Source: Azolla caroliniana
Lineage: Eukaryota; Plantae; Polypodiophyta
NCBI GenBank assembly: GCA_043228905.1
Contig: JBHGNT010000018.1
Location: 16,368,001-16,432,000 of the forward strand
DNA: 64,000 bases
Direction: 5' to 3'
Each line of letters begins with the position of its first letter. Position 1 is the stretch's first letter. Under the pieces are notes generated by a model. The model worked only from the letters and a program-made list of their open reading frames with translations. It was not told where the DNA came from and searched no databases. Below, piece by piece: positions 1 to 41,099 of this stretch. Position numbers and translations under genes: made by a program.

Positions 1-1365
1 TGCAAGACGTTCCTCATGATTCCCTTCTGGCTGACATGGCTCAGAGGAACATCCCCGATATGCTCGATGGGATGGGATGTGGGGTGTCGTCTTCGGTTTC
101 CACCAACCCCGGCTTCTCCAGCTTCTCGAGAAAGGAGAACCATTCTTTGTGGTTCGTCATATGGTTTGAAGCTCCAGACTCCACATACCAAACTCATGCT
201 TCATTATGCTTCATTATGGGATGTAGGGATTTTGTTGGCCTTATGCTTCATTACGAGGGCCGGTTCCGACCTGGCTCTCTCTGAGCTTCCAGCGAAGTGC
301 GATCGATGACACCTATCTATGTCCCTCCAGCTAGATCTGGCTTTGTCCGAATCGACTCTGTTCTTCCAACACTCGCTTTCTTGGTGGCCTTTTCGACCAC
401 AATGCTAGCAATCTGTTGCAGTCTTTCCTTGCCAGCTCCCAGCTCTGCCTTGCCTCCCCCTGCTTCCAGAGGGTCCGGTACTACTGTCGGCACCATCTTT
501 GTGCCTCCAATTCTGCTCTTGTTGGCCACCTACATTGCACGCCGATCCGCCTCAACCTCCACATCCACGGGGCCTATTTGCCTCCATGTTCAACATCTTG
601 TTGTCAGTGTGCGTACTCATCGATGCACCCACGTGGTTCTCCTCTACAAGGAGCATCGACTATAAGTTGAAAAAACGAATGCGTATTCTCCCTTGTACAT
701 ACCGTTGTCCGGAATGCTCCGAACTTTGACGTCAGGCCCCCGAGACAGACCTACACCATCTCATCCTCCTCGACGGTCACGTTGACGGAGACAAGGGAAT
801 CGCAGATCTCCTTAATCCAGGCCGTGTAGTCGACCACCAACATGTCCTTCTACCGGACATTGCTCAACTCTCTTGTCGGCAGTAGAGGTTCTCAACCCTC
901 ACGCTCTGATACCATGTGACAACTATAGCGTGCAGAAGCTAAGACAACCGGCTCGTCTGGATAGAAATAGAAAGTAGAGATGAAGGTTTAATGGAAACCT
1001 TAAACACACATACGCGGGAGACAGGGAGAGCAGAACAAAACTCAATTTCAAAATAATACTCTATAATTGTATACAATGTCCTAGACAACACTTTTTATAC
1101 AAGTCCTTAAAGGACTGACAGAAGTACTGACATGTACTTCAATGCTCGTACAAGCAACTAACACTAACTCCAAGGAATATGCCTACGTACTAGGCCCGAA
1201 CCGTATGCCTCCAATGGCCTATCGGTTCACACTATTCCAGAGTACGATCCAGTTATCCGATTCGGCTCTAGATTCCGGATACCTATCCGGTTCTCCTTTC
1301 CGGATATCAATCCTACTCTAGCTTATTCAGCCGATCTGGATCTGGTTGAGCTTGTCCGCCCAATA
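1..1365 (-). mobile_element. Ty1/Copia LTR retrotransposon, 5' part (5' LTR ~917-1365, PBS-Met, degenerate gag-protease); runs off the left window edge
   Basis: gctctgatacca at 903-914 is the reverse complement of the tRNA-iMet PBS (TGGTATCAGAGC). The minus strand reads gag-like IKEICDSLVSVNVTVEEDEM..CLGGL and SMLLVEENHV, and the Copia protease motif WYVESGASNHMT (~150-190). The LTR resembles the one at 36630-37072. Confidence 0.85.
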
Positions 1366-1668
1366 CTTTCTTTTTTTCATTCATCATTTGGGCCGATGTC
1401 ATTTCCTCTCTTCTTCTTACCGCTTCTCTCGTATCACTTTTCTTTGAAGGGCCCACTTGTTAATCCAGTCATTTCCATTTCTCTTCGACAAGAACTTCAT
1501 AATTTTGGTGTATGACCTCAAAAAGGCATGTCTTTTCATCCACCAAGTCGTTCCACTCTGGCATTGCTTGAACTCTTTGTTTAGCTTCATTAGCCCCCTC
1601 TGCTCGGAGCTTTCCCTTCCCAACATGGTCTAAAATTATCAACCAAAATTCTCCTTCTTGCAAGCCTT

Positions 1669-1756
1669 TGAGTGAGTGAGTGAGTGAGTGAGTGAGTGAG
1701 TGAGTGAGTGAGTGAGTGAGTGAGTGAGTGAGTGTGTGTGTGTGTGTGTGTGTGTG
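1669..1756. repeat. Compound microsatellite (TGAG)n(TG)n
   Basis: Directly visible. Confidence 0.95.
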
Positions 1757-2025
1757 GGTGTGTATTTTGGTTACAAAACTAATCGTATTAAGCAACAATT
1801 TATGAAATTTATTGCAATGGGGTTCTAGTCCTAGAAGGATTCATCAGAGAGAGCATTGTCCTAGACTTAGACATAGAGATAACACCATATAGAAAGAACT
1901 TTCCATTATTCAACCAAACCATCTTTAATTATCCTTCACTAACAATTTGATGTCAGAAAAGGATCCTAGTGGTGTACAAAAATGATCTAGGAGGTTGATT
2001 CCTTGATTATTGAATAGATTGACAT

Positions 2026-2415
2026 TGTTGGCCGGTCAGAAGAGCAAGGACAAGTGGGAAGGCGGAATCGGATCGGATAATAGGAAGTAAATAATAGTAG
2101 AATTATTATTCGGAGGGACGGATCCGGTACAGTTGTACCGATCCGGATCCGGACCGATTCGGATGTCGGTTGCCTAAGCGCACCGATTGTAACCTTGCCG
2201 GATGCCTATAAAAGGATCCGATGATTTGTAAAGTGTTTTGACGGAAGTAATACAATAGTAATTATTGCGTGTTTATCTGTATCTCGTATTGTTTACCGTC
2301 TGTGCTTAATTGTAATCATCTTACGCGTGTAACCTAGCATCCAATCCTTACCACCCCTTTGGAGAAGTGTCGGATAGACACCTGTGTTGAGGCTAGTCCG
2401 GCCAGACAGACAACA
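2026..2415 (+). repeat. 5' LTR (390 bp)
   Basis: Direct repeat of 11414-11803; TATA-like ctataaaa near 2206. Confidence 0.97.
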
Positions 2416-2467
2416 CTATTTTGGCGACCACGATTCCTGCAAAGTGCAGAGGACAACCGGGGGATGG

Positions 2468-5400
2468 ATGTCTAGACCAAACGATGACCACATCACCGAA
2501 CGAGGGAGATGATACACCGAACGCGAGCAACGACGGGAAGCCCTGCAGCAAGCCGTCGACGAGATCCGGCGGGATCGGTCATTCTCCAAAACTCTTCGGA
2601 GAGTCGCAGAAGAAGCATTGCAGTTCCGGGTTCTGCAAATCCCCGACGAAGGCAGTAGCATAACAAGCCTGCAAGAGGCGGAAACGATACTGCAGACGCT
2701 CGCCGCGGGCGACGGGGACTCGGAAGCATTCGCAACACTTGAGGCGGAGTCGGAAAGCGACGGAAGCGTTGCATCCCGGTATAAAAGCAGCCACGACACA
2801 CCAAACGACCGGGAGGACGAGGGGTCGGAAGACTCAGTAACACCGGCACCAGAGGAAGAAAGAACCCTGGAATTCGGTGACCGGCAACCGCCGAGGAAGG
2901 CTGACCGTATACCGACAACAACCGCGAGGGAACCAAGGGAGCAGATACCGACAACACCCGCGGAGGAACCAACGGACCAGACACCGGCAACACCCGCGGA
3001 GGAACCAAAGGTTCTCACACCAACGCCAACAGCGGACAGAGAATGGAGGAAACAGGAGAGTCAGTTGGACGACACGATGTTGTACCCATACCCAAAGTAC
3101 CGGGATGAGGCCGACGCGGAGGCACACATGTACGCATTCCTCCAAACATGGGAAGCCAACCATATCTCCCAAAGACTGACGGAGCCCGAAGCCGAACGAT
3201 CCAAAATCGCCGAATTCGGCATAACCTTAGAAGGACCGGCGGCCCAATGGCACACAAAGCACTTACCGGGCAGCTTTGCCACATTCGATGCCTTGAAGGC
3301 CAGATTCCTCAGGTTTTTTCACAGACAATTTGAGCAAAGGGAATTGGTCGGGCAGTTCTACACCACCCGGCAGGAAGAGAACGAGACTATGCCACAATTC
3401 ATCATTCGGTTCCAGAACCTGCACAGCCAACTGACAAGAGCACCACCCGAAGACGAAGCCAAAGCAGTCTTTCTGGCCGCACTGAAAGAGCCACTTCGAA
3501 CAATGTGCGGAGTCCTTGATTTCCAAACCAACACAATGGACCAAGTTATTGATCGGGTTTTAGAAATGGACAAGACTAGCCCCTTCTTGTCGATGGGGAT
3601 GTCACACCGGGCACTCCCAAAGGAGGAAGACCTGAGGTTCCGACAGGCCTTACAATGTACAACATGCCTAAATTCGGGGCACTCAACAGTGGACTGCACC
3701 CTGCGGACACAATGTGTGATCTGCAACTCTCGAGCCCATACAACGGACCGATGCGAATATAACCTGTTAAATCGGCAGGCAGCACCGGTTCGACACATAG
3801 AACCACGCAATCAGAACCCGGACGAGGATCGATTCCGGAGAGACGACCGCTACCAACGCGAACGCGGTAACAGATACGCTGATAGAAGACGCGACAACTA
3901 TGACCGAGAGGAGAGACGCAGAGATAGCTACCCCCGGGACCGGTACGACAGAGACGAATCCCCGGAAGACGACCGACGCGGAGAAGAGAGGCGACAAGGA
4001 TACGCTGATAGAAGACGCGACAACTATGACCGAGAGGAGAGACGCAAAGATAGCTACCCCCGGGACCGGTACGACCGAGACGAAGCCCCGGAATACGACT
4101 GACGCAGAGAAGAGAGGCGACAAGGGAACCGAAATTTCCGACGGAATCAGAAGCGTGGATTTTTCCGAAGAGAGGAACTTCGGGAGGGAGCAAGGAATGA
4201 CAACCCGGTATCGGTACCGGATAACCGAAAAACCGAAGACGACCGCCGGAGCATACACACCCTCCAAACCGGGGACAAAGGAGAAACGAGCAACAGTCAC
4301 AAGGTGTACTGTTATTACTGCCGCAAGGAAGGCCACTATAGTAACCAATGCCCAAGCAAAAGCTATGACAAGCAGCCGGAAGTCAACATGGTTACAGCCG
4401 AAATAACAGAAGTACAACAGGTCACAACCCGGTCAAAGGGAAAGACCGCCGAGTGGGAAGCCCAGGAGGCAATCAGAAAACAAGCGACACAATGGATCAA
4501 GGAGGCCAATGAACAGAATGCGGCAGAAGTAAGAGACCAAAATATGCCAAAAGACGAAGAAATCATACAGCCAGGAGAAAACCCGACGTGGCAAGCGCTA
4601 CAGGACTGTCAAATCGTGATGCCGTTAGCACGACTACAACAGTTAGTGCCACGATTTACGGCAGACCTACAGGCATCCGTCAGCAAACCGAAGCCGACGC
4701 TAGCACCGGCATTCTTCTCCAACCCGGAGGAAGGACCAACGGTGGTCGATACAAGTAGCTCGGCGATCACGGCAATCGTGAAAGGAAAGGAAATTGCTGG
4801 AACGATTATTGACGGAGGCTCTGGGGTAAATGTCATCAGCCAACAGACATGCAACGACCTGGGCATCCGGGAATGGGAACCATGCCCCTTCTGGTTACGC
4901 ATGGCGGATACTAGCTCAGTCCGACCGACCGGGCTTATCCGGGATTTGGAAATAACGATCGGAGGCCACGTATTCCGGATATCGGCCGTGGTGCTGCAGC
5001 TGAATGTACAAGGCGCGTACCCCCTACTGCTAGGACGACCATGGCTGCGAACGGCGCATATCAAGCAGAATTGGCAAAAGAACATGATCACATTCCGGCG
5101 AGGGAAAACAAAGGTACGAGTAACGACGCAACCACGGGTGATCACCAGTAAGGAAGCAACTCCATTGTATGCGGAAAGCATTAACATGTTGGAGGGATTA
5201 CCGGATGAGGAAGTCGAGCGGTACCTCGAGGAACACCCACGAATCGTCCCACTATTTGAGGTGGATATCACGGCGGCAGTAGAACCGTACATTACGACGC
5301 CGGAAGAACCGGACCAAGCGGCGATCCGGGAACTGCGACAAGCGCAGGAATCCCTAGAGAGGGAAATGATGATATCCCAGAGGGTAAAAGCATCCCAACT

Positions 5401-8400
5401 CGAGGAGGTGGACCTCGGCACAGCAGACAAGCCCCGACCGGTAAATGTTGCAAAGGAATTGCCGAAGGAAGAAAAGAAGGCAATGGTAGCATTGTTAACA
5501 GACTTCAAGGATGTGTTCGTGTGGTCGTACGAAGACATGCGAGGGCTGGACCCCCAGCTCTATCAGCACCAAATTCACCTAAGTACAGACGCGAAACCGA
5601 TTGCTCAACGCAGGTACCGGATGAATCCGAATTATGCGGCAAAGGTGAAGGAGGAAATTGATAAGCTCCTCCGGGTCGGATTTATCCGACCAGTCAAGCA
5701 GGCAACCTGGCTGAGTCCGATAGTGGTGGTCCCGAAAAAGAACGGCAAAATCCGGGTATGCGTGGACTACCGAAAACTAAATGCCGCAACAGTGACCGAT
5801 GCGTTTCCACTACCATTTACGGACGGGGTGTTAGATGCGGTAGCCGGGCACGAAGTTTACAGCTTCCTGGATGGATTTAGCGGCTACAACCAAATACGAA
5901 TGAACCCAACCGACCAAGAGAAGACAACGTTCGTGACGGAATGGGGAGTGTTCGTCGCGGTCGTGATGATGTTCAGACTAAAGACGGCTCCAGCGACCTT
6001 TCAAAGGATAATAATGGAAATTTTCGGGGAATATATCCCCGGTTTTATGCAGGTCTTCCTTGACGATTTCGCAGTCTACAGCCGGCACGGAGAGCATCTC
6101 GATCACCTCCGGCTGTGCTTGGAGAAGTGCCGCGAGTACCGATTGAGCCTGAATCCGGCCAAATGCGTCTTTGGAGTGGCAAGCGGCAACTTGCTAGGGC
6201 ACGTGGTGAGTAAGGAAGGAATCGCGGTAGATCCGGATAAAGTCAAGGCGATTCTCGATGCACCAGCACCAAGTAACGCAAAGGCTTTAAGCCGGTTCCT
6301 GGGCCAAATAAGGTGGCATAGCCGGATGATACGGCACCTCGCGGACTTCGCTACACCGTTACATACCGCCGTACATAGGGTACCCTTCCTATGGGCAGAG
6401 ACGGAGGAGGAATCCTACAAAGCGTTGAAGGTTATGTTGTCGCAAGCCCCGGTGGTGCAACCGCCGGATTGGAGTAAAAGCTTTCACGTCTTCGTCGACG
6501 CGTCGGACGTAGCAATCGGCAACGTTCTGATGCAACTCACAGAGCCGAAATGGTACCGACCGGTGTACTACGCAAGCCGGAAACTCTCAAAAGCCGAACG
6601 GAATTACTCTACGACGGAACGCGAGGCATTGGGAATGGTGTATAGTGTCACAAAGTACAGGCACTATCTGCTCGGAAGGAAGTTTTCCTTCCATGTCGAC
6701 CATTCGGCACTACTCTACCTGGTCTCGAAGGCATCCCTAACGGGAAAAATTGCACGGTGGACACTGCTACTACAGGAATTTGAATTCGACATTTTCCACC
6801 GACCCGGGGCGCAGCATGCGGTAGCGGACTATCTAAGCAGACTCGAATCCGGACAAGCAGGGGACGGCGTCCAGGATGAGTTTCCCGATGCCGAATTGTT
6901 CCGGATCACGACGAAACCGGCAACGGATACAACGGTAGCCGATGAAGACACATGGCTAACTGAGATGCATCAGTTCCTGAGCACTGGAGTTCCCCCGGAG
7001 AACATGGACCGCGATGAAAGGAAAAGGGTAGCAGTAAGAAGCAGACATTTCTGCTTGGTTGGAGACACCCTCTATCACAAGGGGGCAGATGGCATCTGGA
7101 GACGAGCAGTGCGGAGCGATGAGAAGGATCTAATCCTCAGGGAAGCCCATTGTGGAATTGCCGGCGGGCATTATGCCGGCGACACAACCGCTCGGAAAAT
7201 ATGGCAGAGCGGACTGTGGTGGCCGACCACCCTAAAAGATGCCGTGAAGTATAGCAGAGAATGCGATTTGTGTCAACAACTAGGCCAACCCATAGAGCAG
7301 GCCCGGATGCCACACCACCCGGTCTTGCCCTTGGAACCGTTTCAAAAGTGGGGGTTGGACTTTGACGGTCCCTTCAAAACACCGGCAATGCGAACCGGAA
7401 ATCGGTATGTCATAGTGGCGACCGACTATTGCACCAAATGGGTAGAAGCAAAGGCCTTACGGGACAACACGGCCGCATCCACGGCAAAGTTCCTGTACGA
7501 GTGCATATGGTGCCGGTATGGTTGCCCGATCGAGCTTATAAGTGACCAAGGAGGACATTTTCTCGGGCAGGTAGTAGAAAGCCTGACGTCATTTTACGCG
7601 GTGGTACATAAAAAGAGTACACCCTACTACCCTCAAGACAATGGGCTAGTGGAATCAACGAACAAAACTCTGCAGAACATCCTACGAAAAATCGTCAACG
7701 AGAACCGGACCGACTGGGATACGAAATTGCAAAGCGCGCTATGGGCGTACCGAACAACGTACAAAACTAGCATCCGGACAACCCCGTTCCGACTAGCATT
7801 CGGGTTAGAAGCGGTCATGCCGGTAGAGTTCCAGATCCCCAGCTTACGGATTCAGGTGAAGGAGCGCTTAAGTGAGAACGAGTCCGAACGAATCCGGCTG
7901 GCAATGTTGTTGGAATTAGAGGAAAACCGAATAGCCAGCTTACTACAACTCGAACTGGAGCAAAGGAGGAGAAAAGCCTTCGTGGACCGACACCAGCGTG
8001 GCAATGAAAAGGAGTTCGAAGTCGGGAAACCGGTACTACTATTCCAGACACGGATGGGGAACATGCCGGGAAAGTTGCGGTTTCGATGGACCGGACCGTT
8101 CTGGATCACCAAGGAGTACAATGGGTCATATCAGCTCGGCACGTTGTCTGGAGATGTCATCGGCAAGTGGGCAAATGGATTTCGGCTAAAGCCGTATAAG
8201 GGAAATATGCCAGCCAACCCGTTCAAGAGAAACCCGGAAATCCGGCAAGATGAGGAACCGACACCGACAGACGCTGCTGAAGATATTCGGACTGAGGAAG
8301 AACCGACACCGATACTGACGAAGACTATCCCGGAAAACCGACAGAAGGATCCGGTATCCACACGAACCGACCCGAACAAATCGGGGGGGACCAGCAAATG

Positions 8401-8401
8401 A
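2468..8401 (+). pseudogene. gag-pol polyprotein in a single frame, broken by in-frame TGA at 2510-2512 and 4100-4102
   Basis: ATG at 2468, ORF 2618..4102 and ORF 4304..8401 share one frame. Three CCHC knuckles (CTTCLNSGHSTVDC, CVICNSRAHTTDRC, CYYCRKEGHYSNQC); protease IIDGGSGVN; RT FLDGFSGYNQI and FLDDF; RNase H VFVDASD and YSTTEREAL; integrase H..H..C..C, WGLDF, SDQG. Confidence 0.92.
3873..4125 (+). repeat. 126-bp (42-aa) tandem duplication in the Arg/Asp-rich part of gag
   Basis: YADRRRDNYDREERRRDSYPRDRYDRDE... occurs twice, with copies starting at 3873 and 3999. Confidence 0.9.
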
Positions 8402-8420
8402 CGTGGTCCAAGCAAAGGAA

Positions 8421-8472
<52 letters not shown>

Positions 8473-8746
8473 TAAATAAATAAATAAAATAAAATAAAAT
8501 AAAAAATGACGTGGGCAAAATCGACGCGAATCATCGTAATGATGGGGAGATCACAAGAGGTGGGAGCGCCACCATGCAACGAAGAGGCGCCATGCATTAA
8601 AGAAGGACGTGCGCGGACTTGCTATTTAAAGCATGGAACGTGGGCACTCACACGTGGCAAACAAGAAAGGACATACTAATTATGGCGGGAGAGGAACATG
8701 CGCGGGAAACGAAAAAGGGTGGCTCGAGGCACAACCCACTATATAA
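8399..8746 (+). promoter_or_regulatory. Candidate internal promoter for ORF3 (ACGT/ABRE/G-box cluster plus TATA motifs, around an (AAT)n tract)
   Basis: TGACGTGG at 8399 and 8507, ACGT at 8607 and 8638, CACGTGGC at 8651; CTATTTAAA at 8622 and TATATAA at 8740. Confidence 0.45.
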
Positions 8747-8882
8747 GACACAGGCCTGCGAAGGGCTCACTTTTTACGAATTTTCCTACATACAGGCGCA
8801 GAAGCACAGAAGAGCGACCCAACGCACAGAGCACACACAGCGCGACCCCGAACAACAGGCAGCAGACGAAGAATTCGAAACA

Positions 8883-11363
8883 ATGGTACTATCGGAAGAG
8901 GCACGCCAATGGATGAGGGAGAACGGGTTAAAAGGATTGCTGCGGATCGCCGACGCTCCACCACACGCAGAACCAGAGCAGGCGGCAGCATCGATCGATA
9001 TATCAGAAGTCACGGAAGGAGCGGTGCAGGCGCTCACGGGGATCAAAGCAGGAGGACTTCAAACAATCGAAAACCCTTCCAATGAAATCCTGTTCGAATA
9101 TTTCGGGGAATACTCTATCAGCAGCAAGGCGTACCGAACGCAGGGCAGAGAGAACCTGCTGTTCGGAGAAGTGGCCCGCGCTATGATGGAATACGGATTC
9201 GTGAATCCCCGTCCCCCAGCCATAGCCAAGTACCGGGCAGCGTTCTTAATAGCAGCGTACGAGGGCTTACAAATAGACTGGCTCCATTTCATAACCGAAG
9301 GATTGAAGGAGGCCATCAAAAATCTTGTGGAAGGAAAAAAGCCATGGGCCGGGATAGCACAATGGCTAACGGTGTTAGTCCCACCGGTGCTCCCCATCAC
9401 ACAAAAGAAAAGAGGTCGACAGGAGACGACGCCGAAAAAGGTCACAAAGCGCCGACAGATCTTGGAGAAACACACCCCCGGATGGACCCAGCAAGAAGCA
9501 GAACAGCAAGGGGAAGGACCATCCCGACAGCAAGAGCCGGAAAATCAGCCTGACTTAAGTGAGCAAGGCCACCCTGACACCGGAAGAACAAAGCCACAAT
9601 GGCTGAGATGGCTTTCGGAGCAGTTATCGGGAGTAGCGGACCAGTTAGAGAAAGAAGAAACGTGTAGGCAACAGCTGACGCATACAACAACTCAGGAGTT
9701 GGTCGCGCTCCGAACACAGATCGAGGAAATGCAAGGGGAGCTGTTGCAGGCAAGGGAAGGAATTCAACAAGCACAAGCTGTCACCGAGCTGGTCGGGACA
9801 ACAAGGAAGCAACCAGAACCGGAACCGGAACCGGTAGCCTTGCAAACCGGCCCTGAGACCGAAAAAATAATAGAAACCTTACGAGAGGAGTTAAAAGCTC
9901 AGGAGACATTAAGGGAAAGAGAAAGGGAGCAGCGGAAAGCGGTGGAGGACGACAGACGAAAAATGGAAGAAGGCCTCCGGAAAGGTCGAGCCGCTAATGA
10001 CCGACTGCAAGAAGAAAAAGAGAAGCTGCAGAAGGAGAAGGACCGACTACGTCGACATGCCGAGCAAGAGTTAGAACGACTGCAGGAAGAACTCCGACAA
10101 CAGAAGGACCGGGACGATCGGTTAAGAGCTCAGGCAACCCGACGCCTGAAGCAGAAGACGGAGGACTTCGACCGTCTCTACCGAGATCACAAGCAGGCCG
10201 AGTCGAACAACAAAAAACGGGCAACAGACTACGACCGGCAAATAGAGAAGCTGAAAGAGCAGCTCAAAGAGACCCGATTAGACCTGGCTAAGGCGATGGA
10301 TGAGGTCAGTGCCAACAAGGAAGCATTGTCGGCGGAAATAGCCCAAGCAACGGAGAGAAGGAAGGAATTAGAGGCGCTAAGGCGGAAAAAGTTGGACCTG
10401 ACCAAGATCAGGAATGAAGAAAAGGAAAAATCGACCTTCATGATCAGCAAACTACAGAGTACCTATGAAAAGCAGAAAGCAGATTACGAGGCCCAGGCTC
10501 AGATAATGGCCGACATTATAAAACGGGCAAGGAAGGAAAAGCAGGAAGCTTATGCGCATGCTAAGGCAGGGGTTGACCGGATCAAGCTCATCATGTCAGG
10601 ATGGAGTACCCGAGCTCAGGCAAGCATCAACGAAAGTACGGAAAAGCTATGGAAGGAGTGGTCACAACAGGCAGCCGAGCTGCAGACACTCCGAGCGGAT
10701 GCCGAGAATCGGAGGAAGACCGGTGACAAGTTCTATAAGATGGATGAAGAAAGTATCGTCGCCATTCAAGAAGAATTGTTGGAGGATTTCTACACTTTAG
10801 CAGAAGAACACCTCAAAGAAATCCGAGGGTTGGTAGAGAGTTTGGATGACGGGCAGCTCGCAACTCAGTTGGAGTTGGAGAGATACGAGCAGGACCGGTT
10901 ACGACAGGAAGCTAAGGGAAGAACGACGCCAACCACTATTGGTGAGGGAACGCGACCGGCTGAAGATGAACCAACCGACACCGAACAACCCCGACGAGGA
11001 ATACCCGAAGACGAACTTGAAGAAGAGCAGGAGCGGACCGATGCCGGCGAAGAAGAAGAGTTGAGACCGGAAGACACCAGAGCAGAGGAAGGAGGCATAT
11101 CGAGTCGACCAGTCGAGACCGGAGAAAGCGACACCGGTAACAGAACAGAGCCAGGAACGGAGGGAGAACAGGAAGAACCCGGACGAAGCGGTGAGGAAGC
11201 ACCGGCACCACAGAATCAAGCAGAGCCGGAGCAGCAAATTTTTACGGAACAGCCTACCCAACCGGAGGTCGGAGACCAGGCAGGCAAGGAACAGGAACAG
11301 GAGGAAGAAGCACCACTTGACACCATCGAGCAAAGTGTGCTCGATATTTTGGAGGAAGACTGA
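8883..11363 (+). CDS. Retrotransposon extra ORF3: N-terminal globular domain (plant-transposon-protein-like), long coiled coil, acidic tail; 826 aa from ATG 8883 (893 aa from ATG 8682)
   Basis: Uninterrupted ORF 8619..11363 between pol and the 3' LTR. E/K/R/Q-rich heptad-like middle region. The N-terminal domain is homologous to the relic at 38995-39476, and the homology starts near M8883. Confidence 0.85.
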   Translation: MVLSEEARQWMRENGLKGLLRIADAPPHAEPEQAAASIDISEVTEGAVQALTGIKAGGLQTIENPSNEILFEYFGEYSISSKAYRTQGRENLLFGEVARAMMEYGFVNPRPPAIAKYRAAFLIAAYEGLQIDWLHFITEGLKEAIKNLVEGKKPWAGIAQWLTVLVPPVLPITQKKRGRQETTPKKVTKRRQILEKHTPGWTQQEAEQQGEGPSRQQEPENQPDLSEQGHPDTGRTKPQWLRWLSEQLSGVADQLEKEETCRQQLTHTTTQELVALRTQIEEMQGELLQAREGIQQAQAVTELVGTTRKQPEPEPEPVALQTGPETEKIIETLREELKAQETLREREREQRKAVEDDRRKMEEGLRKGRAANDRLQEEKEKLQKEKDRLRRHAEQELERLQEELRQQKDRDDRLRAQATRRLKQKTEDFDRLYRDHKQAESNNKKRATDYDRQIEKLKEQLKETRLDLAKAMDEVSANKEALSAEIAQATERRKELEALRRKKLDLTKIRNEEKEKSTFMISKLQSTYEKQKADYEAQAQIMADIIKRARKEKQEAYAHAKAGVDRIKLIMSGWSTRAQASINESTEKLWKEWSQQAAELQTLRADAENRRKTGDKFYKMDEESIVAIQEELLEDFYTLAEEHLKEIRGLVESLDDGQLATQLELERYEQDRLRQEAKGRTTPTTIGEGTRPAEDEPTDTEQPRRGIPEDELEEEQERTDAGEEEELRPEDTRAEEGGISSRPVETGESDTGNRTEPGTEGEQEEPGRSGEEAPAPQNQAEPEQQIFTEQPTQPEVGDQAGKEQEQEEEAPLDTIEQSVLDILEED

Positions 11364-11413
11364 GGCCGGGAGTGGATTCGAAGTGCAAGGCACTTTCCCA
11401 CGGGCGTGCCATG

Positions 11414-11803
11414 TGTTGGCCGGTCAGAAGAGCAAGGACAAGTGGGAAGGCGGAATCGGATCGGATAATAGGAAGTAAATAATAGTAGAATTATTATTCG
11501 GAGGGACGGATCCGGTACAGTTGTACCGATCCGGATCCGGACCGATTCGGATGTCGGTTGCCTAAGCGCACCGATTGTAACCTTGCCGGATGCCTATAAA
11601 AGGATCCGATGATTTGTAAAGTGTTTTGACGGAAGTAATACAATAGTAATTATTGCGTGTTTATCTGTATCTCGTATTGTTTACCGTCTGTGCTTAATTG
11701 TAATCATCTTACGCGTGTAACCTAGCATCCAATCCTTACCACCCCTTTGGAGAAGTGTCGGATAGACACCTGTGTTGAGGCTAGTCCGGCTAGACAGACA
11801 ACA
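11414..11803 (+). repeat. 3' LTR (390 bp)
   Basis: Direct repeat of 2026-2415, followed by TSD GACAT. Confidence 0.97.
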
Positions 11804-14800
11804 GACATTTGTTATTTGTAAGGGTCATTCAACCCTAAACTAATGGTCCAATCACGGTCTTTGAAGATCATGCACAAGTTATTGTAACCCACCATGTTGT
11901 AGTCGCCATAATGTTGGTTTTACCAATCTTTACTACTCGTAATTGCAAAATTGTACCAACTATTGACCAAATTTTCATTTAATACATTTTCAAATTCATA
12001 AGGGATTTAAGTAAAGTTCAAACGAAGGAAGGCATCTAGAACTATGTTTCTGTTTACTTTGTTAGGTGCTTTATTTCCATTGAGAACTAGTTGTGCATGT
12101 AAGCTATATTAGGATTTATTTTTGAAAGGAACCCACAATCAGTCTAAGTTTTGCATTTGCAACTCATGAGTGGAAACCCAATTCATCTTAGAGCACATGA
12201 TGTTCTCAAGACTATAAGTGAAGGCTCCACAATAAGAGATAGCCTAAGAACTAATGGTCTTATAATTATGTTATGCAAATTCTTAGTTCATATTGACAGG
12301 TTTTCCGTCATATGCTACAAATCAACTAGCTTATTAGCTGGAAGAATTACGAATGATTTTGAAAGCCCAAGATTAGCATGACTACAACTTTATAAAGATG
12401 TGAAACCACATGTCTAACGAATTCCTTCTATGACTTGACCACCAACATCTAAATATCATTTGTACAACTTATGTTTGGGATCTTAATGATTCCTACCCCT
12501 AATAACTACAAGCTCTATATTAATCAAGTTCGTTGCAAATTCTCTTATGGATATTGATGGTATTCATAAATCAATCTCTTTTTTTCTCCTATACACAAAC
12601 TAGTGCTAACCTTCCTATTTCTAGGGTTTTTAGGCTTTATTTCTACCCAATTCGGGAAGATGGTTCTCTTAATGAATTGCTATACAATGGTACCTAAATA
12701 ATAGAGGCCTATTTTTTTAGTTTACCCAAGAATATATGATGGAAGTGAAGGAACGCAATATCCTCCTCAAGGATGCCAATAGTTGGATAAAAGACTTCAA
12801 TGATTACTCTGTTAAATTTTTTCTTAAAGGCATTCACATTAATTTCAAATGTGGGGTCGCAACATCAAAAAATTACTGACAATCATTTGAACTTTTTCCT
12901 TCATTTTAGTAGCAAGTGTGCATCATGTGCTTACTTAGTAAGCACATGAATGCAACAACTTTGGACATATACCTCATGGTGCATTAAAATATTGGCACTT
13001 CTTTAAGCACATACAATCAAAGTGTCAAAAGTGAAAGGGATAAAGAGAAGAAACGACATTTCTTGGAGAAGCAAAGGAATATAGGAAAGCGTTGTGGTCA
13101 CAACAAATAAGATTGATGTAGTGTGTCTTTAGTTGACAAAATTAATACTCAAAACTTTGGGTGATCTCTTTTAGATATTGGAAAAGGAGAATCCATCTAA
13201 GCTTTGGGCCCCTTTCACTTGCATATATATTACACATGCGGTAAAAGTGGATTCCACGATTGCTTTCACTAAACATAACCACATACTTAACAAAAGTAGA
13301 TTCTATTATTAGTGCCACATAGATTTGTTTATGTGTGTTCTTCAATTGTGGTACGAAAACTTAAGCCTAAATATTCGTGTAACATAAAATAACTCTTTGC
13401 ACTAATAATTATGTGGCATACACAATGCCCCATCACTTAAATTTGTGCAATAGAAATATAATTGTCACATTTTATATTCCATGCTTGTAACATCGATATT
13501 AAACTAATTCCTTGTAGGTTTGCATTTAGTTTGTATTAGAAAGAGAAAATAGAAACTATGTCCAAAGCACATGTAGGCCATGGATTGCGTGTTGTTGGCA
13601 ATATGCAATCATGAAACAATCGCTTGCTTCTATTAAATATTTGATATTTGTCATCAACATATGATCCAAAGAATCCACTAGAACACAATGGACAAAATGC
13701 CAAACTACTCCAATAGAACCTAATTATTTTTGCTAATATTTAAGACCAAACGTGGAATGTATATGGAATCTCCTATGTTGTTATGATGAGTTCAGCCTAA
13801 GCTTGTGGTAGTTGTCATTAAGAGAACTAAAGAATGCCACTTATATTACTATTTTGCTTTGCAATTATTATTATAATCTAGGTGACAAAAAAAGTGTGTT
13901 GTACATAGAATGATATGTGCAACATAAGTGATATTTATACATTTGACAATGAGATGGTGATGGAAGGAGGATAGGATTAAATCAAGGGCACATTATTGAA
14001 AAAATTAGAAACAAAGGAATATGGATAGACAAAGGGGGGATGAGAAACATGAGCTAGGGGTGATCATAAATATGAGTCCGTTTAGCATGGTTTGTGTAAA
14101 AGGAGACAAACACTAGTTCTTTCTTTTTCTTTTTCTTTTTGGGGGGGGGGGGGGGGGTGGGGGGCGGGATGCATTACAGCACTTATGCTCTAATCATTTT
14201 ATGTGGTAGAGAACATATCAACATATTAAATTATTTGTGTGCAATAAGTGACACTTGTAGTTCAATAAAGACTTGTTTATATTTGTCAAGTGATGATAAG
14301 ATCATGATGATGTGGTGATGGAGATTAGGGCCAAGACAATGTTTAAATTTCAAACCCATTCTAGGCTTGCTTCAGAAGGATCCAAAAGTTTTCAAGGTTG
14401 GAAAAATGGAAACCAAAGAAATGCCATACGTTGAAAAAAATTACAAGATGTAAAACACACGGGAATTCAAAATACCCTTGAGCTTTTCAATACCTTTGCA
14501 ATGGCCCCAAATTTTCATTATTTTCCCGAACATCTTGGTCAACCCCCAAAATAGAGAAAATGGGAATTAATGGATCATATAAATCCTAAATAAGGAATAT
14601 AATTGATAAAAGAGGAGATGGAAATTTGATCAGATAATTGCTCAAATAATATATATGTTTTCTTGATTGAGAGTATTCCCTCTATAATATTAAAACTTTG
14701 AGGGCTCATCGTACAAATTAAAAATGAGGCTTCATGGTTGAATGCAAAGTTTTCGATAGGCTTGATTAACCAAAATTTCTCCTTTATAGATCATTAGTGC

Positions 14801-19826: not shown

Positions 19827-20998
19827 CAATAACCATTTGGTTAAGTGTGTGTCCACTTAAGTGTGCCATTCTATTAAGTGCGCTTTTTATAGAGGTCAAA
19901 ATCCAGATCATGAAAATTTCATTGTTTCATGATTACATTACATAAAACCAAATTGAAACTATGTGCTAAACATTCAAAAAACAACAAAATGGTCAACATT
20001 CAATAAAATTGATATTGTGAACCACAAAATGAATTGAACTTCGATCTGGCATTCCTACCATTACATAGGTTGGGCGTGGGTCTATGAAGCGAAAGTGGAC
20101 TCATATTGGGGGAAGACTATTACTCGATTAATAGCTCATTATGTGAGCTCACGTTAGGGGAAAGCTATTAATCGATTAATAACTCATTATATGGACTCAC
20201 ATAAAGGAAAAGCTATTAATCGATTAATAGCTCATTATGTGGACTCACATGAAGGAAAAGCTATTAATCGATTAATAGCTCATTATGTGGACTCACATGA
20301 AGGAAAAGCTATTAATCGATTAATAGCTCATTATGTGGAATCACATGAAGGAAAAGCTATTAATCGATTAATAGCTCATTATGTGGACTCACATGAAGGA
20401 AAAGCTATTAATTGATTAATAACTCATTATGTGAACTCACATAAAGGAAAAACTATTAATTGATTAATAGCTCATTATGTGGACACTCACACGAAGGGAA
20501 AGCCGTTAATTGATTAATAGCTATTGATATATTAACACAAGTATTTGGATTCAAATCCCTACTTTTAGGTATTTTTGTTGCACTATCTCAGCCAAGTACG
20601 TGGATCGTTTCTCCTAAACCACATGCCACATATCAAAATAACGACATCACGCACAACCTCCAAATAGTTACCATCTAAGATATGCAGAGATTCAGGCCAT
20701 CTTGACTATGCACAAGACCTCCCTTCTCTTCTTTCTCTCGTATTCATACCATAGACACCAAAAAATAGACATAGGAAAGAAACGTGGGGAGTGACATGGA
20801 TTGCAGCAGTGTGGGAGCAATTACAGCAGCAAGGAAGGCCTCAACAATGGCTGTTGGGATTGGGTTTTCTCAAAATTAGAATAGGAAAGAAAAATTTGAA
20901 ATTTTCTTTTTTGACTAAAAAAGCCCTAAATGCACATCTCTGTTAAGTGCACACCTTTCCCTTGCGTTCAAAGTGCGCACTTAACTGAATATCTACTA
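19827..20998. mobile_element. Non-autonomous Tc1/mariner (pogo/Tigger-like) DNA transposon with TA TSD
   Basis: Degenerate TIRs: TA-caataaccatttggttaagtgtgt versus the reverse complement of the right end, TA-tagtagatattcagttaagtgcgc. Repeated ttaagtg subterminal motifs. Removing the element and one TA restores the LINE reading (ttgaagggagTActaatgtgg on the minus strand). Confidence 0.75.
20095..20522. repeat. 48-bp tandem minisatellite, about 9 copies, built around a 22-bp palindrome
   Basis: Unit gtggactcacatgaaggaaaagctattaatcgattaatagctcattat; AGCTATTAATCGATTAATAGCT is self-complementary (perfect in central units, slightly varied in outer ones). Confidence 0.95.
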
Positions 20999-23900
20999 TA
21001 CTCCCTTCAATTTTCGGTGATATGCTTTCACTCCACGTCTACCATCGAATACAAAAGCGTTGCGCATGTTCCAATTATGACGCAATCCCCAATATCTTAG
21101 AAATAGAAAAACAATCTCCATCTTTGATTTTGGGTCAACCTATGTAAATTGTGCAAACACCCATTGTCTAGGTGTCAAATAACACCGTGATAAAACTTGT
21201 CAAATTTGAGAAATGTAACTCCAAATCTGACATTGTATAAATTGATGAGTATTATCTTCCATTTGAACAATGCAAAAAAAGAAATTACTCGTTGCTAGTC
21301 CACGATGCTTTAAAGCTAATCCCAAAGACAATCCTCCAATCAAAACTCTCCAAATGAAGACCTTTGCTACAATTGGCAATTTAGAATGCCAACTACGTTG
21401 GAAGATTTGCCACCACCCAGATCAGATTTGTGTATTTTCCCTTCTTCTTCAGCCTTAGAGGATAGTCATCCAAGAGACTCAACAAAGCATTGATACAAAA
21501 GATTAGTAGTCACTTGTAACAACGATGTTTGACCGTGTAAACACTAATCAATCCACGGTTGTTCTCCTGTTTGTAGAGGTAAGGAACCTTGCATCAATGC
21601 AATATAATTTGTAGTTGTTGCCAAAAAAACCCATAATTAGGCGGGATGCGTAATAATTGTCTCGCTTCAACAAAGTCCAAAATTCTTTGAGATGGAGCCT
21701 TAACTATATCTCCCACCTATTTGACCCCCAAACAAAACAAACAATTAAATTGAGAGCGCAATCTCTCATTTCCTGGTCAACATAATAATCGAGAAGACAC
21801 AAGTAACTCTTTTTGCAAAGAATTACAATGCTCTCTACTTGATGATGGTTTCCATACACATAACAAGTGTGCTTCTTGTATATGCTTTTTAGATTTGTAA
21901 TGGAAACTATGGTGTAGTTTAAAAAAAAAACAAGAATGCTTCTTGCCATGAAGTAACAAAGTGTTGAACACATGAAGAGCCTAGAATCCTAAGTGAAATA
22001 CATCCATTCAGTAATTGCCACCATGAAGCCTTAATCATTGTCCTCCCATGTGTTAAAACCTTGTTCTCAATGAAATATTGAGCAATAGATATCCATGGTT
22101 GTGAGTTTGAACACATGTATTGTAATAATGAAAATCTACAAGCCATCATATGCATAGGGGTTGCGAGATGATTCCACGCAACCCATGTGATTCCCATCTT
22201 ATCCCTCTTCTTCCACAACAGATATCGAAGAGGTTGCAAAACAGAATGCAAAGCCTTCTTTGTCCATGGCAACAATGACAAGTAATATAATATCATGGGT
22301 TCCATAATACATTGTACAACTGTCAAGCATACATGAAATGGCCAAGATTGTGACCATTTGTAACATTCATTTCTAATGGATATCCCAAGTGTCGAAAAAT
22401 AGAGCCTTTCTTCACCATGAACGTTCCCATCCTAAACATTCCAAATCCCTTTCAGTACATGATATGAGCCTAGACTTCCTCCAATTAATATATAATCTGA
22501 GCCAATGCAAATTGGCTCCATACAAGCATCCCCTTCTCAAGATTCTCTCATGAGGCTTGTAGAAACATGAAAGAATCATCAACCAAAGCTTATGATACTA
22601 GTTGCCCTCCAGACAAAAGCTGTAGACCCACAATGTCACCATTTGTTGCAAGCCTTGACAGTATCAATAACAAGGGATGAGTAACAATATCAAACAACAA
22701 TGGGCTAAGAGGGCATCCTTGACGAACGGATCTTGTGAGTGCAATATGTGATGTAACCCCCCCATTAAGCATTACTCGAGACATCACATCTTGTCCTAAT
22801 AAAAATATGAGGCGAGACATACGAGGTCCAAAGCCCATTGTATGCATTAACCCAGAAACAAGGGACCAATTAACATGATCATAAGCTTTCTCCAAATCTA
22901 ATTGCACTATAATCAATTCTTGATGAGTGTTTTGAGCATAATCCATGGCCATTTGAACATTCAACACATTATGCAATATATTCCTACATGCAATAAAACC
23001 ATATTTGGCAGGTTGTATCAACTTTGGTAAATACTTTTGTAATCTATTTCCCAAGACCTTTGTAAATATCTTATACAACCCCCCCCCATCAAAGAAATAG
23101 GTCTCCATTGATGAAATAACTTTGGAGATGCCACCTTTGGAACTAATTTAATTAGACCAACCTTCCAAGATTGAGGCATACAACTAGAATCCCAATAATG
23201 TTGAAACATCAAAGTTAAGGGTCCCTTTAAAATGTTCGAATATCGCTTAAAAACTTCATATGTGAAGCCATCCCAACAAGGCCTCTTACCACTAGGAAGA
23301 TGCCTTAAAACCATGTCCACGTCATCCTCAGTGAAATCCGCATCCAATTCATGACTAATGAGGTCATGCATAATACATCCAACCACATCATAAAACTCAT
23401 GATGTGCTCTACCCACCTCATTTGTCATTAACAATTGTGGGACAATCAACTTCTTAAAGTAATGAACACATATGTCAATTATTGTAGTAGGATCCACTAT
23501 CAATTCAACCTCTTGCTTCACATGTACCAGATTAGATCGAGCATAAGTAGGATGTAACTATTGGAAAAACAAATGAGATTGGCATTTGATTATCTATGAG
23601 CCCATCCCTCAATTGATGCATCTTTGCATAATGATAACTTTGGCATTGCAACTGAGAAATAATAACCTACAATTGACTTTGGATATCTAAAAGCTCCTCA
23701 TCTAATGGTGCATGTATCGATAATGCATTACACCTAGAGAGAACTTGTGAGAATTGTAAAAGAATACCTCTTCTTTGTTGAGCATTAGTTACTCCATACA
23801 TACGATGAATGATGTTAATGTTTTGTAATGTGATATCCCATGCTTTAACTCCTTTAAGATTCACTTCTTTTGAAAAATTTACCAAAATTTTCTCCATGAA

Positions 23901-25924
23901 GGAATCAAAGTGAGGTTGAAGCAAAAGAGAAGAGTTAAAGCATAATGACAGCTTTCCAAGTAAGGATTTATAATCGTCAATTGCATGATTACAAACCTAC
24001 AAACAAATAGGAAAGTGATATGAAGTTCCTACATCTTGTAGAACTGTCATACAAAGTGATGTTGGTAAAAAAGAATCATCATGCATCACATAAATTCTAT
24101 CTAACTGACTCTATGTTTGTCTATAATGAGCAGATTGAAAAGTAAAACCTAGATCATTCCCATGCAACCACGTCTAAACATCCAACTTCAAAACCTCGAT
24201 AGCCAATGAATCTCAAACAAGTTGCTCAAGTTCATCCATGATTGAATGTTCAAATGTAGATTGAGATGCATCAACACATGTTAAAATCACCCATAAATAA
24301 TCCTGGACGACCCACACATAGGGTTTGACAAAGTGGGCCCCATAATGCAATACATTGAGTGGCTTGGTTAGGGGCATAAATCCCACCCACCCACACAACC
24401 TCACCAAAAAATGTGATTTCTAGAACCAAAAATCGGCCATAAGGAGGATCATTATGCACCACTTGAGGATAATATTTATCCTGCACGATTAATACCACAC
24501 CTGAATAAGGATTATTTCATGCACTGTGGATCCTGCTAACTCATTGCACTTATGCCCAACTACATAATACATCCCATTCTTTACTTAACAAAGTTTCCCA
24601 TAATATATACTTCTTATGAGGAGAACATGCCCCTCTCACATTCCATGTTTTTCCATATCCATAGATTGACTTCCCTTATTCGTAGGGCCCAAACCTTGAA
24701 GTGAGACCTCTTTATAACCTGCTCTAGATGATGTTCCTTCATCCATGACAACCACAATATTTGACACACCAACATCTCTCCCAACTCCTTCATTACGAAC
24801 CTCTATTGTTGAAGGACAATGGCGATGGCATTCCGCCAGAAAGTGACCCCATTCACCACATCCAAAACAATGACCTGGAAATGTCTCCCACTTCAATTGA
24901 AAACAAAGTCTTTTCATACCAAGTGTGTTCATATGCACCCAACTTGGCCTCTTATGACTTGTATCCCATAACACACAAAATCTGCACTTATTTGTAGCAT
25001 TTGCATGTGGAGATACCAACACTTTACCCATTTGACTCATCAACTCTAGTAAAAGTGGCCATAAAAAAACATGCTTACAATCCACTATTACCCAAACATG
25101 GCATTCTTGTTTTAACAAAGCATGACAGTCCACTACGGGGGACCATTGCATTACATGCACTAATCGTTTATCAAAAAACATAGGAACTTTAGCCAACAAT
25201 GCACTTCGATGTTTTGGTGAACGAAATACTACATCATAAAACCCTCGTGGTCCTACATATATATTTTCAACACAATTTGGTGACATGATTGTGTTCAACC
25301 ATTGTTTAATCCAATTAATGTATGGGAGTTTCCTAGTAAAAATAATATAATCGCATGATCATAGAATACATTAAAAGATTGCAACAATGCCTTAGCATCA
25401 ACTTCCACATCAATGCATTCTTTCGCTTCATTTTCATTTTCTTCCACAATATCAGACAACAAGGTATTGGCAATTCCCCAATAATTATCCCAATTTCAAT
25501 GACCCTTGTCAATCTCATCTACATTACTTTGACATATCATGTAAATTTTTTCTCATTAATTTCCTCATTACCCTTAAACCTCTTAGAGCTTCCAATGTCT
25601 TCCCTTTCACGATTACATTCAACCATCACATTACTCTTTTTATTATCAATTGTTTCCATATCAATGTCCCCCACAATTTGTGAGGAATTCATGTTTATAT
25701 CCATTATTCTTGATGTGATTTCGATCCGGGATAAAAACAATTTTCCATGAACAAGAGAGACAACCGGAACTCACCCGATTGAAGAGGTCGAAAATGATGA
25801 AGACAATCGAAGACCTGCAATCTAATGCTTATCTTTGTGCCCAATTCCGTTGTCGATAGAGAGCGCAACAATAAAAACAAATTCGCTTCTTCTTCTTCCC
25901 CTCTCCACTCTTGCTTTTTCTTCT

Positions 25925-30900: not shown

Positions 30901-30988
30901 TTATTGACCAGCTGCAGGTCCTGAATGAAGCGCAACATGTCGTTCTTCTTCGGCATAGTAAACCACCGATTCGAATACGGGGCACTCG
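27938..30988 (-). mobile_element. Truncated Gypsy element (3' LTR 27938-28564, PPT, deleted IN/RH/RT), related to 50723-57730
   Basis: TGTCG...CGACA termini; PPT (reverse complement of ctgcccccacctaacc); peptides close to those of 51390-54120 (MCTLPQGGTNSVAH, RKFARRWFGPY); internal deletions. Confidence 0.88.
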
Positions 30989-32610
30989 ATCAAGGAGCTT
31001 TGCGACTCACTTGGCTCGATAAGCGTCAATGTGGACGATGATGAGATGGTGCAAATATGCCTGGGTGGCCTTGCACCACGATTCGACGTGATGTAGATCG
31101 CCGTACTAGCACAGGAGAATCCGCCCTCCTTCTTCGATCTTCAATCTATGTTGTTGGTTGAAGAAAACCATGTTCGAATGAGGAGCAACGCCTCCGAAGC
31201 CCACATGCTCTACTCGCATTTGGATGGAGGAAGAGAACGCGGCCGTGCAAGAAGAGGTTGATTCGGCCAAGGACGAGGCGGACGAGGCCCGACTCACAAA
31301 AACAACTCACAATTTGGAAATCAAGACGGAAGCCATCGAGGAACCTTCGGAAGAAGGGGGAGCTTCCATTGCAGTTCGAACCGACAAAGCTCGGTTGAAT
31401 GCGGATATTGGGGAAAAATTGGTCACCACGAAGAAGAATGTCGTAAGAAGATACGCGAGTCGGCTTCCACTAGCTGACAACTCACCAACTATGCCATCAA
31501 CTCCGACTATGACGATCACGACCGAATGTTCGTGATGAGACATAAAGCGAATTTTATGTCGGCCTCTACTTCTACTAATGCCTCTGGTCTGGAAGACGTA
31601 CGGTTCGTCGATTCCGGTGCCTCGAACCATATGACTTCGCATCAAGAATGGTTTCGAGAACTTCGAGAGCCGGACTGACCCGGCTATGTTGAAACCGGAG
31701 ACGACACTACGCACCTGATTCGGTACATTGGCAATGTTCCGTTTAGCGAAGAAGGTAAGAAAACTTATATTAAAAATGTATTGCATGTACCAACTATCAC
31801 AAAGAATTTGGTCTCCGTCGGCCAAATTGTAGAGCAAGGAATGTAAGTACGATTTAATCAACTTGGTTGCTTCATTGAAAAAGAGGGTTGACTCATCGCT
31901 CGTGGACGAAGAGAGGGCCGAATGTTCATTCTCGACTCACACGAGATGAAATCGGCCATGTTCGCAAAGGGCATGAAAGCCGATTCCAACATAGAGTTAT
32001 GGCACAAGCAGATTGGCCATATCAACCTCCAAAAGCTCAAGGCAATGCAATTGAAAGGAGTCGTCATCGGGCTCTCGACATTCACAAAGAAAGAGATTGA
32101 AGGCGTGTGTGCCGCTTGCCAATTCGGCAAGCAACATCGGCACCCATTTCCGAAGGAGCGGAACGTGAGCAAAGGCGTACTCAATGTAATTCATTCCGAT
32201 GAATGGGGTTCGGCTCAGACGACGACATTTGGCGGATGCCGATACTACGTGACCTTCATCGACGACTTCTCTAGGCACAGTTAGATGTACCTGATGCGGC
32301 AAAAGAGCGAAGTGTTCAGACACTTCCAAAAATTCAAGAATGAAGTTGAGAAAGCCACGGGCCAACATGTATGATGTCTTCGGTTGGATGGAGGCAAGGA
32401 ATATTTCTCGAATGAGTTTACGACGTATCTACGGAAAGAAGGAATTCGACAAGAGTTTTCGTGTGGACATACGCCACAACAAAACGGAGTGGCCGAACGA
32501 AAGAATCGGCACATCCTCGAAGTAGCACGGGCCATGATGAACGAAAAGCACGTGCCGAAGTTGTACTAGGCAGAAGCCGCTAACACAAATGTATACCTCA
32601 TGAATCGGTG
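30989..32610 (+). mobile_element. Degenerate Ty1/Copia gag-protease-integrase fragment
   Basis: KELCDSLGSI; FVDSGASNHMT; LWHKQIGH...CAACQFGKQHR; YYVTFIDDFSR; DGGKEY; TPQQNGVAERKNR; many stops. Confidence 0.88.
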
Positions 32611-40970: not shown

Positions 40971-41099
40971 TTATGGTTACCTTTTCAAAACCGTGGTGTA
41001 GGGATGAGTGGAAATTGAAGCACCGACGGGCGTGAGTGACCATGTGCAGTCATAACCGGAGACACGGACACTGACGGACGTGAGCGACCATCTGCGGTC

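Follow-up and report, generated by a model that had tools for sequence, protein, structure and literature searches.

A 64,000-nucleotide (nt) stretch of the Azolla caroliniana genome (NCBI GenBank assembly GCA_043228905.1, contig JBHGNT010000018.1, positions 16,368,001 to 16,432,000 of the forward strand), hereafter the window, contains a Ty3/Gypsy retrotransposon at 2026–11803. The element is bounded by 390-nt long terminal repeats (LTRs) and carries a third open reading frame (ORF3) after pol. ORF3 is a real, conserved accessory gene that matches no profile of the known families, and purifying selection on its structured parts is about equal to that on the pol enzymes. The predicted fold of its N-terminal domain (N-domain) best matches that of VANC21, and this likeness tentatively points to a DNA-binding protein that would act against host silencing.

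ORF3 is a conserved gene of a Ty3/Gypsy lineage

An earlier reading of this DNA, made from the sequence alone (the sequence-only reading), had described a sense ORF of more than 800 amino acids (aa) between integrase and the 3′ LTR. This was borne out: 826 codons lie between the end of pol (8401) and the LTR (11414–11803), and a stop-free run of this length would arise by chance at the base composition of the window with a probability of ~4e-16. Selection was estimated with a codon model on eight copies, comprising the window copy and 7 of 23 fetched loci that were picked for long open frames; this sample consists of assembled contigs of high-copy families and not of single insertions. The ratio of nonsynonymous to synonymous substitution rates (dN/dS, ω) was 0.073 for the N-domain (aa 1–165), 0.39 for the linker, 0.14 for the coil (aa 331–680) and 0.56 for the tail. 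Pairwise ω was 0.08–0.09 for the reverse transcriptase (RT)–RNase H region and 0.03–0.11 for integrase. Synonymous sites were near saturation in distant pairs. The dN/dS check proposed in the sequence-only reading thus gave values that are not near 1 in the N-domain and the coil. The suggestion that ORF3 is a lineage-wide accessory gene is supported by these enzyme-like values, together with the presence of ORF3 after pol and on the same strand in 9 of the 23 loci, and after pol in a divergent relic elsewhere in the window. Most of the remaining fetched contigs were too short to show pol upstream of ORF3. At four loci (L005, L006, L008, and L011), no match to pol was found in the 900–1700 nt upstream of ORF3; such contigs may have been wrongly joined at the AT-rich run, or the copies may be truncated.

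Twenty of the 23 loci were examined for the integrity of ORF3. Six contained a complete frame (964–1018 aa), three were open to the contig end, and 11 were interrupted by an early stop or a frameshift. The family is abundant, with thousands of matching contigs per DNA run, and relatives of the N-domain recovered by a full HMMER scan fell into 179 clusters (at 50% identity), the most distant being ~25–30% identical. The window copy itself, which had been called intact, carries an in-frame deletion of ~155 linker codons. The deletion measured 465–480 nt at ~9531–9536 against all six relatives tested. The missing linker segment was present in nine of nine close database relatives (67–87% identity over the alignment) and was covered throughout in three DNA runs at summed depths of ~600–6800. 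No joint matching the deletion was listed in these three runs, whose contigs drop rare variants. A run presumed to be RNA yielded six incomplete contigs (<95% identity) and a second yielded none, with none located on L002; these runs provide no evidence either way on expression.

The start of ORF3 is likely at 8883, as judged from the sequence. The in-frame stretch upstream of it (8682–8882) is open for 78–116 codons in 11 of the 12 loci L001–L012 (94 codons in the window, 97 in L007), and gene callers therefore extend the protein. With an ω of 0.62, low DNA divergence and short tandem units, this stretch fits conserved promoter or leader DNA. We rejected a longer ORF3, begun at an in-frame ATG further upstream, as the main form, given this ω and the start of distant relatives near 8883; a minor start upstream may be used.

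Profile searches placed ORF3 outside the known families. ORF3 itself had no Pfam match to DUF1985, PF10536, PF03078, or PF20167 (E 1), and a Pfam scan of 110 aligned members of the N-domain family gave nothing better than E 0.017. No exact match to a characterised accessory ORF family was found, and scans of viral contigs gave nothing. The nearest named clusters in the language-model Atlas were Transposase_32 and ATHILA at 0.84–0.85, which is under the 0.9 line and serves as a lead only. Comparison by hhalign with a Transposase_32 protein gave a probability of 0.5, in a test that is underpowered with its single comparison protein. The earlier likening of the N-domain to the "putative plant transposon protein" type (Transposase_32) is no more than a lead: this is the nearest named Atlas cluster (0.85), but none of the 110 members has the corresponding Pfam match.

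The relic in the window preserves remnants of pol followed by pieces of the N-domain, ~450 nt after the end of pol homology. These pieces matched the family profile at E 2e-30, 2e-9, and 6e-9, with 39% identity over 72 aa. Of the homolog that had been claimed after the relic pol, the N-domain was confirmed, whereas a shared coil and tail lack support there. The relic supports the N-domain only, because ORF3 is truncated by another LTR-like sequence near 39500.

Predicted architecture of the ORF3 protein and its DNA context

The N-domain was modelled from 110 sequences as an all-alpha fold (predicted local distance difference test score (pLDDT) 92.9, predicted template-modelling score (pTM) 0.85). 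When this model was compared with 48,161 solved chains by an exhaustive structure aligner, a single chain scored above Z 5. This chain, 9lnk_A ("VANC21 in complex with its target DNA"), aligned over 164 of 180 residues (91% of the model) with a root-mean-square deviation of 3.6 and a Z of 6.5, a value in the range (Z <8, or <13 for helical folds) in which a match may reflect a common arrangement alone. The aligner's guidance places more trust in a match that clearly outscores the others and spans the greater part of a domain; both hold for VANC21, as the next chain reached Z 2.3. Foldseek searches of the N-domain model against the PDB and viral models gave nothing at E 0.001. Re-examination of the top 595 Foldseek chains gave nothing at Z 2, and VANC21 surfaced through the exhaustive aligner alone. 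The best family-profile match among the sequences of solved structures, a ribosomal protein (E 0.084), was taken as chance. Because a Z of 6.5 is middling, homology to the VANC/PMD fold is likely and not demonstrated; in our judgement, the N-domain is probably a true homolog of this fold.

The globular N-terminus, coiled-coil-like middle and acidic tail outlined in the sequence-only reading agreed with the models. Downstream of the N-domain, a basic cluster was found in 21 of the 28 relatives long enough to be tested, compared with 319 of 2180 control windows within the domain (15%). This basic patch is likely a nuclear localisation signal or a DNA-binding arm. The region aa 331–677 was modelled as three long helices (C-terminal model pTM 0.26). 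Two copies of aa 389–674 were predicted to form a parallel, in-register coil over ~aa 396–567, with a score of 0.39 compared with 0.00 for the best of three controls; the prediction runs shared at least 52% of contacts, and the partner pLDDT was at least 67. Of 30 solved pairs, 21 passed the mark for a dimer, compared with none of 23 single chains. For eukaryote pairs the figure was 17 of 29, and it fell to 1 of 7 where no older solved relative existed. The tail contains 48 D+E and 10 K+R residues. No transmembrane-like segment was detected in any of eight near-full-length proteins, whose highest 19-residue hydropathy was 1.18–1.31 and which contain 1–5 cysteines each. The ORF3 protein has no hydrophobic leader. 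The view that ORF3 is not a classical env is upheld by this low hydropathy and by the lack of a signal peptide or anchor.

The noncoding DNA of the element contains candidate control sequences. TATTTAA occurred 215–326 nt before the ORF3 ATG in 18 of 20 sequences, among them the relic, and is likely an internal promoter element in the spacer. A canonical TATA at −143 was rejected as a conserved promoter, as it was present in 5 of 20 sequences only. A T-rich stretch ends in AG at 8795 and could serve as a splice acceptor. G-box-like ACGTG motifs varied from 0 to 5 per copy. In the 5′ LTR, CGGAT/ATCCG occurred 11 times in 390 nt; none of 500 dinucleotide shuffles of the LTR reached 11 copies of any 5-mer (mean 4.5), and an LTR fragment of one relative contained 7 CGGAT copies in 141 nt. 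This CGGAT-rich array is a candidate target of ORF3.

Possible functions of ORF3 and related systems

Our preferred reading, held tentatively and at somewhat short of an even chance, is that the ORF3 product is a VANC/PMD-like protein that dimerises, acts in the nucleus and binds DNA, and that it counters host silencing so that its own family stays active. ORF3 would be transcribed separately from an internal promoter in the pol–ORF3 spacer, and the basic patch would direct nuclear import of the protein. The coil is predicted to form a parallel dimer, whose two N-domains would bind the CGGAT-rich LTR array, and the acidic tail may recruit host chromatin or transcription factors. Acting in trans, such a factor would also serve defective copies, for example the window copy with its gag-pol stop and linker deletion. 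The sequence-only reading had offered an anti-silencing factor, a particle scaffold or a chromatin tether; among these, anti-silencing gains a specific lead from the modelled fold match. VANC21, the sole chain above Z 5, is itself a plant transposon accessory protein, and the nearest Atlas clusters are plant Gypsy extra-ORF families, which we count in favour at the level of a lead. Enzyme-like selection, the basic cluster, the predicted dimer, the repeated LTR motif and the upstream TATTTAA also fit this reading. VANC21 binds a short motif repeated in the noncoding DNA of its own element and brings about a loss of methylation (PMC5735166, PMC10398659). A coiled-coil dimer is predicted for VANC21 and extended coiled coils for the Athila domain (PMC13547354).

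A number of observations weigh against the preferred reading. The N-domain is 8% identical to VANC21, and the matched VANC21 stretch (307–533) exceeds the model in length by ~55 residues. A Z of 6.5 is lower than the best value that the aligner typically gives for models without a clear match, which is 7–8, or 14 for helical models. The N-domain is net acidic (16 K+R compared with 21 D+E), and none of the 110 family members matched DUF1985, PMD, ATHILA, or Transposase_32 at E 0.1. Given the rate of 1 in 7 above, the coiled-coil dimer prediction may merely reproduce coils of solved structures. LTRs often contain repeated motifs: a different LTR of the window carries one 5-mer seven times within 427 nt, and pol has 6.5 copies of CGGAT per kb. 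The observed/expected CpG ratio of the ORF3-bearing element is 0.9–1.3 (undepleted), and a Gypsy element without the ORF3 domain, at 50723–57730, is equally undepleted (1.15); CpG and CHG content, used as a proxy for methylation, did not separate the two. VANC proteins diverge fast together with their targets, whereas the N-domain of ORF3 is strongly conserved. VANC/DUF1985 is reported to be structurally homologous to the PMD of MAIN/MAIL1 (PMC13547354; bioRxiv 2024.09.27.615353). MAIN/MAIL1 help to silence transposons (PMC5418596), so a shared fold does not determine whether the protein would activate or repress its element.

The fold, basic patch and dimer evidence would apply equally to a VANC/PMD-fold binder of nucleic acid or chromatin that acts in replication, escorting the cDNA–integrase complex into the nucleus or tethering integration to chosen chromatin. 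The pol of the element has no chromodomain match, and enzyme-like conservation is more in keeping with a conserved partner than with an arms race. We consider this role unlikely: the sole solved relative is an anti-silencing factor, and a protein made from a separate ORF, likely with its own promoter, need not be packaged. If the VANC21 likeness were a chance helical match, ORF3 could instead be a coiled-coil protein of the cytoplasm that acts as a scaffold in particle assembly, in RNA granules or in movement between cells. The match, however, scores 4 Z units higher than any other chain, extends over 91% of the model and falls on a plant transposon accessory protein, and 21 of 28 relatives have the basic cluster behind the domain. 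A scaffold is therefore quite unlikely, even with a middling Z, 8% identity, a net acidic N-domain, and a conserved 350-residue coil as the largest structured part of the protein.

Silencing factors exist within the fold family (PMC5418596, PMC13547354), so ORF3 might bind its own element and restrain it, as in copy-number control or self-silencing of the MAIN/MAIL1 kind. Such restraint is very unlikely for a family that is young (one LTR difference in 390 nt) and abundant (thousands of contigs per DNA run), and VANC, which alone among element-encoded members has had its function tested, activates its element. An env-like entry protein would fit the position of ORF3 on the sense strand after pol, its long coils, and the possible splice acceptor at 8795, but is scarcely credible for proteins of which none of eight has a segment above 1.31 hydropathy, with 1–5 cysteines, no hydrophobic leader, and a basic patch after the first domain. 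Least credible of all is a passenger, that is, a captured or neutrally open frame of no benefit to the element. The early stops or frameshifts in 11 of 20 loci and the 155-codon deletion tolerated by the window copy would be expected of a passenger; its structured parts, in contrast, evolve at ω 0.07–0.14 with synonymous sites near saturation in distant pairs, and a relic whose pol is 60% identical retains a homolog behind pol. The passenger reading is refuted for the lineage by dN/dS, and individual copies may be dead.

The lineage of the element was examined with its RT. The best named RT–RNase H matches were from Riccia, Marchantia, and Adiantum (48%–54%), and those from flowering plants were lower (33%–44%). 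A maximum-likelihood RT tree was built from 47 of the 111 usable sequences and a FastTree tree from the full set, with no labelled reference RT included. The RT clade of the window joined three Riccia sequences (ultrafast bootstrap (UFBoot) 100). This clade was nested in a larger group of liverwort and fern sequences (UFBoot 80), sister to a flowering-plant clade (UFBoot 100), outside which the window RT was placed. The sister clade appears to be Athila-like, because one of its members has Transposase_32 after integrase. Tat Z1/Z2 clades that lack the additional RNase H (aRH) occur in Marchantia (PMC10508981), and the ORF3-bearing lineage may belong to these. By the LINE with DUF4283 elsewhere in the window the host is a land plant, and it is probably a seed-free one.

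VANC21 (Arabidopsis VANDAL, PDB 9LNK) is the best structural match to the modelled N-domain of ORF3 over nearly its whole length, and both are encoded by accessory genes of their elements. Both proteins combine a conserved domain with variable low-complexity regions and predicted coiled-coil self-association; VANC targets are short repeated noncoding motifs, and the ORF3 element has a candidate array of this kind in its LTR. In contrast, VANC is encoded by a VANDAL/MuDR DNA transposon and ORF3 by an LTR element with gag-pol, the two are 8% identical with no DUF1985 profile match in ORF3, and the ORF3 domain is shorter and N-terminal. VANC is described as dicot-specific and as derived from a captured MAIN-like host gene in a 2026 study (PMC13547354), whereas the RT of the ORF3 element groups with liverwort and fern elements.

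The extra ORFs of Ogre/Tat elements also encode one globular domain followed by a coiled coil; such PMD and coiled-coil ORFs appear in Tat elements, earliest in gymnosperms (PMC4408406). They are located in 3′ antisense or 5′ sense orientation in elements with an additional RNase H, whereas ORF3 is 3′ sense and a second RNase H was not detected; the PMD of Ogre/Tat (PF10536) had no match in ORF3 or the 110 members. Gypsy-encoded PMD-A is known in angiosperms, and the origin of PMD in Gypsy or host was left "fully open" (PMC5418596). The Athila extra ORF has in common with ORF3 a position on the sense strand between pol and the 3′ LTR, an element without additional RNase H, and a 5-bp duplication; ATHILA ORF-1 occurs as a 3′ sense ORF, and 166 Athila hits were in the 3′ forward orientation (PMC6317226). 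Unlike Athila ORF-1/Transposase_32 (PF03078, PF20167), ORF3 has no Pfam match and no transmembrane segment, and its RT lies outside the flowering-plant clade. The ORF3 protein is about twice as long as a sunflower Athila-type example of 487 aa (PMC11728184). Phygy, Selgy, and Tat Z1/Z2 of seed-free plants are, like the ORF3 element, non-chromovirus Gypsy elements without an additional RNase H. Phygy and Selgy are reported with 4-bp duplications and no extra ORFs in the available part of PMC6317226, whereas the ORF3 element has a 5-bp duplication and a long extra ORF. The consulted portion of PMC4408406 likewise reports no extra ORFs in moss Tat-like elements or in lineages I–II. The architecture of ORF3 (a globular domain and a coil in an extra ORF of a plant Gypsy element) is thus already known, and ORF3 is new in sequence, position and lineage. 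Our literature search, which covered few subscription papers, found none describing the ORF3 family or a VANC-like fold in a Gypsy ORF of seed-free plants.

The role of plant Gypsy extra ORFs has been called speculative or enigmatic (PMC6317226, PMC4408406), and the effect of retrotransposon extra ORFs on the methylation of their own element has been called uninvestigated (PMC12844716). If a VANC-like fold is truly present in relatives of liverwort and fern elements, element-borne copies of it would predate the origin in gymnosperm Tat elements that has been suggested for extra ORFs (PMC4408406). If ORF3 binds and de-represses its own LTR, it would represent a retrotransposon anti-silencing system beside VANC and a new sequence-specific epigenetic tool. 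A concrete test is offered by the single small domain and the single candidate motif. We regard as doubtful the broader proposal that retrotransposons of seed-free plants encode VANC-type, sequence-specific anti-silencing, and that a single ancient third gene in non-chromovirus Gypsy elements gave rise to VANC, to the PMD proteins of hosts, and to the extra ORFs of Athila and Ogre, by which the "env-like" ORFs of plant retrotransposons, long without an explanation, would be DNA-binding counter-defence factors.

Feature coordinates and further observations in the window

The features of the ORF3-bearing element and of the relic are listed in the table.

Table. Positions within the 64,000-nt window of the features of the ORF3-bearing element and the divergent relic
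Feature	Position	Strand	Remarks
Left copy of target site duplication	2021–2025		5 bp, seen in sequence; right copy 11804–11808
5′ LTR	2026–2415	+	390 nt, TG...CA
Primer binding site-like sequence	2422–2432	+	begins TGG, 6 nt past LTR
gag-pol, single frame	2513–8401	+	Pfam: gag, zinc knuckle, protease, RT, RNase H, integrase
pol–ORF3 spacer	8402–8882	+	AAT/AAAT run 8421–8507; conserved TATTTAA 8623–8629
ORF3	8883–11363	+	826 aa in window copy; 964–1018 aa in six whole relatives
N-terminal all-alpha domain, aa 1–168	8883–9386	+	predicted fold best matches VANC21
Basic patch, aa 175–191	9405–9455	+	basic cluster after domain in 21/28 relatives long enough to test
In-frame deletion junction in low-complexity linker	9531–9536	+	~155 codons missing
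Long helical region, aa 331–677	9873–10913	+	predicted parallel coiled-coil homodimer
Acidic tail, probably disordered	10923–11360	+	conserved hydrophobic-acidic C-terminal end
Conserved non-purine-tract sequence before 3′ LTR	11372–11413	+	no Rfam match
3′ LTR	11414–11803	+
Relic RNase H end and integrase	37064–38554	+	~60% identical, stops and frameshifts
Relic ORF3 N-domain homolog	39005–39476	+	three frames, cut off near 39500

The LTR pair of the ORF3-bearing element differs at a single position in 390 nt, which indicates a young element. A Pfam search of gag-pol gave no chromodomain match and no match to an additional (second) RNase H. The gag-pol had been described as carrying stops; it is indeed broken, but by a single stop (4100–4102) inside a 126-nt tandem duplication, and in a 96%-identical relative it is one uninterrupted ORF of 1901 aa. 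The gag part contains in-frame tandem duplications at 2909–3008 and 3873–4125 (36-nt and 126-nt units), with the stop in the second.

No polypurine tract precedes the 3′ LTR. We take the sequence at 11372–11413 to resemble the 3′ end of a tRNA, with a T-arm-like stem, a small hairpin in the loop, CCA, and 2 nt before the LTR. The pattern matched 5 of the 23 loci, at L002 3472–3511, L003 3988–4027, L006 4747–4786, L009 3742–3781, and L010 3352–3391. The stretch also recurs, with loose ends to either side, in contigs of other families. Its folding z was −0.34 in the window and −2.07 in L010. A paper search on this feature found nothing. The sequence may point to an unusual route of plus-strand priming.

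Around the relic, Copia-like elements nested at 34800–48000 cut it on both sides, with primer sites of the initiator-Met type at ~35220, 39836, and 44411. A degraded gag at 33393–33941 (minus strand) is 37% identical to the gag of the ORF3-bearing element and may represent either a further, third lineage member or a part of the relic that has been displaced. Two further Gypsy elements, at 50723–57730 and 58087–63754 (minus strand), have LTR pairs that are ~97% identical, and neither matches the profile of the ORF3 domain. An older Gypsy relic at 28529–30989 (minus strand) is 75%–80% identical to the element at 50723–57730. A degraded LINE at 21900–25400 (minus strand) has DUF4283 and RT matches typical of land plants, and a tandem array at 20047–20526 has a 48-nt period and is partly self-complementary.

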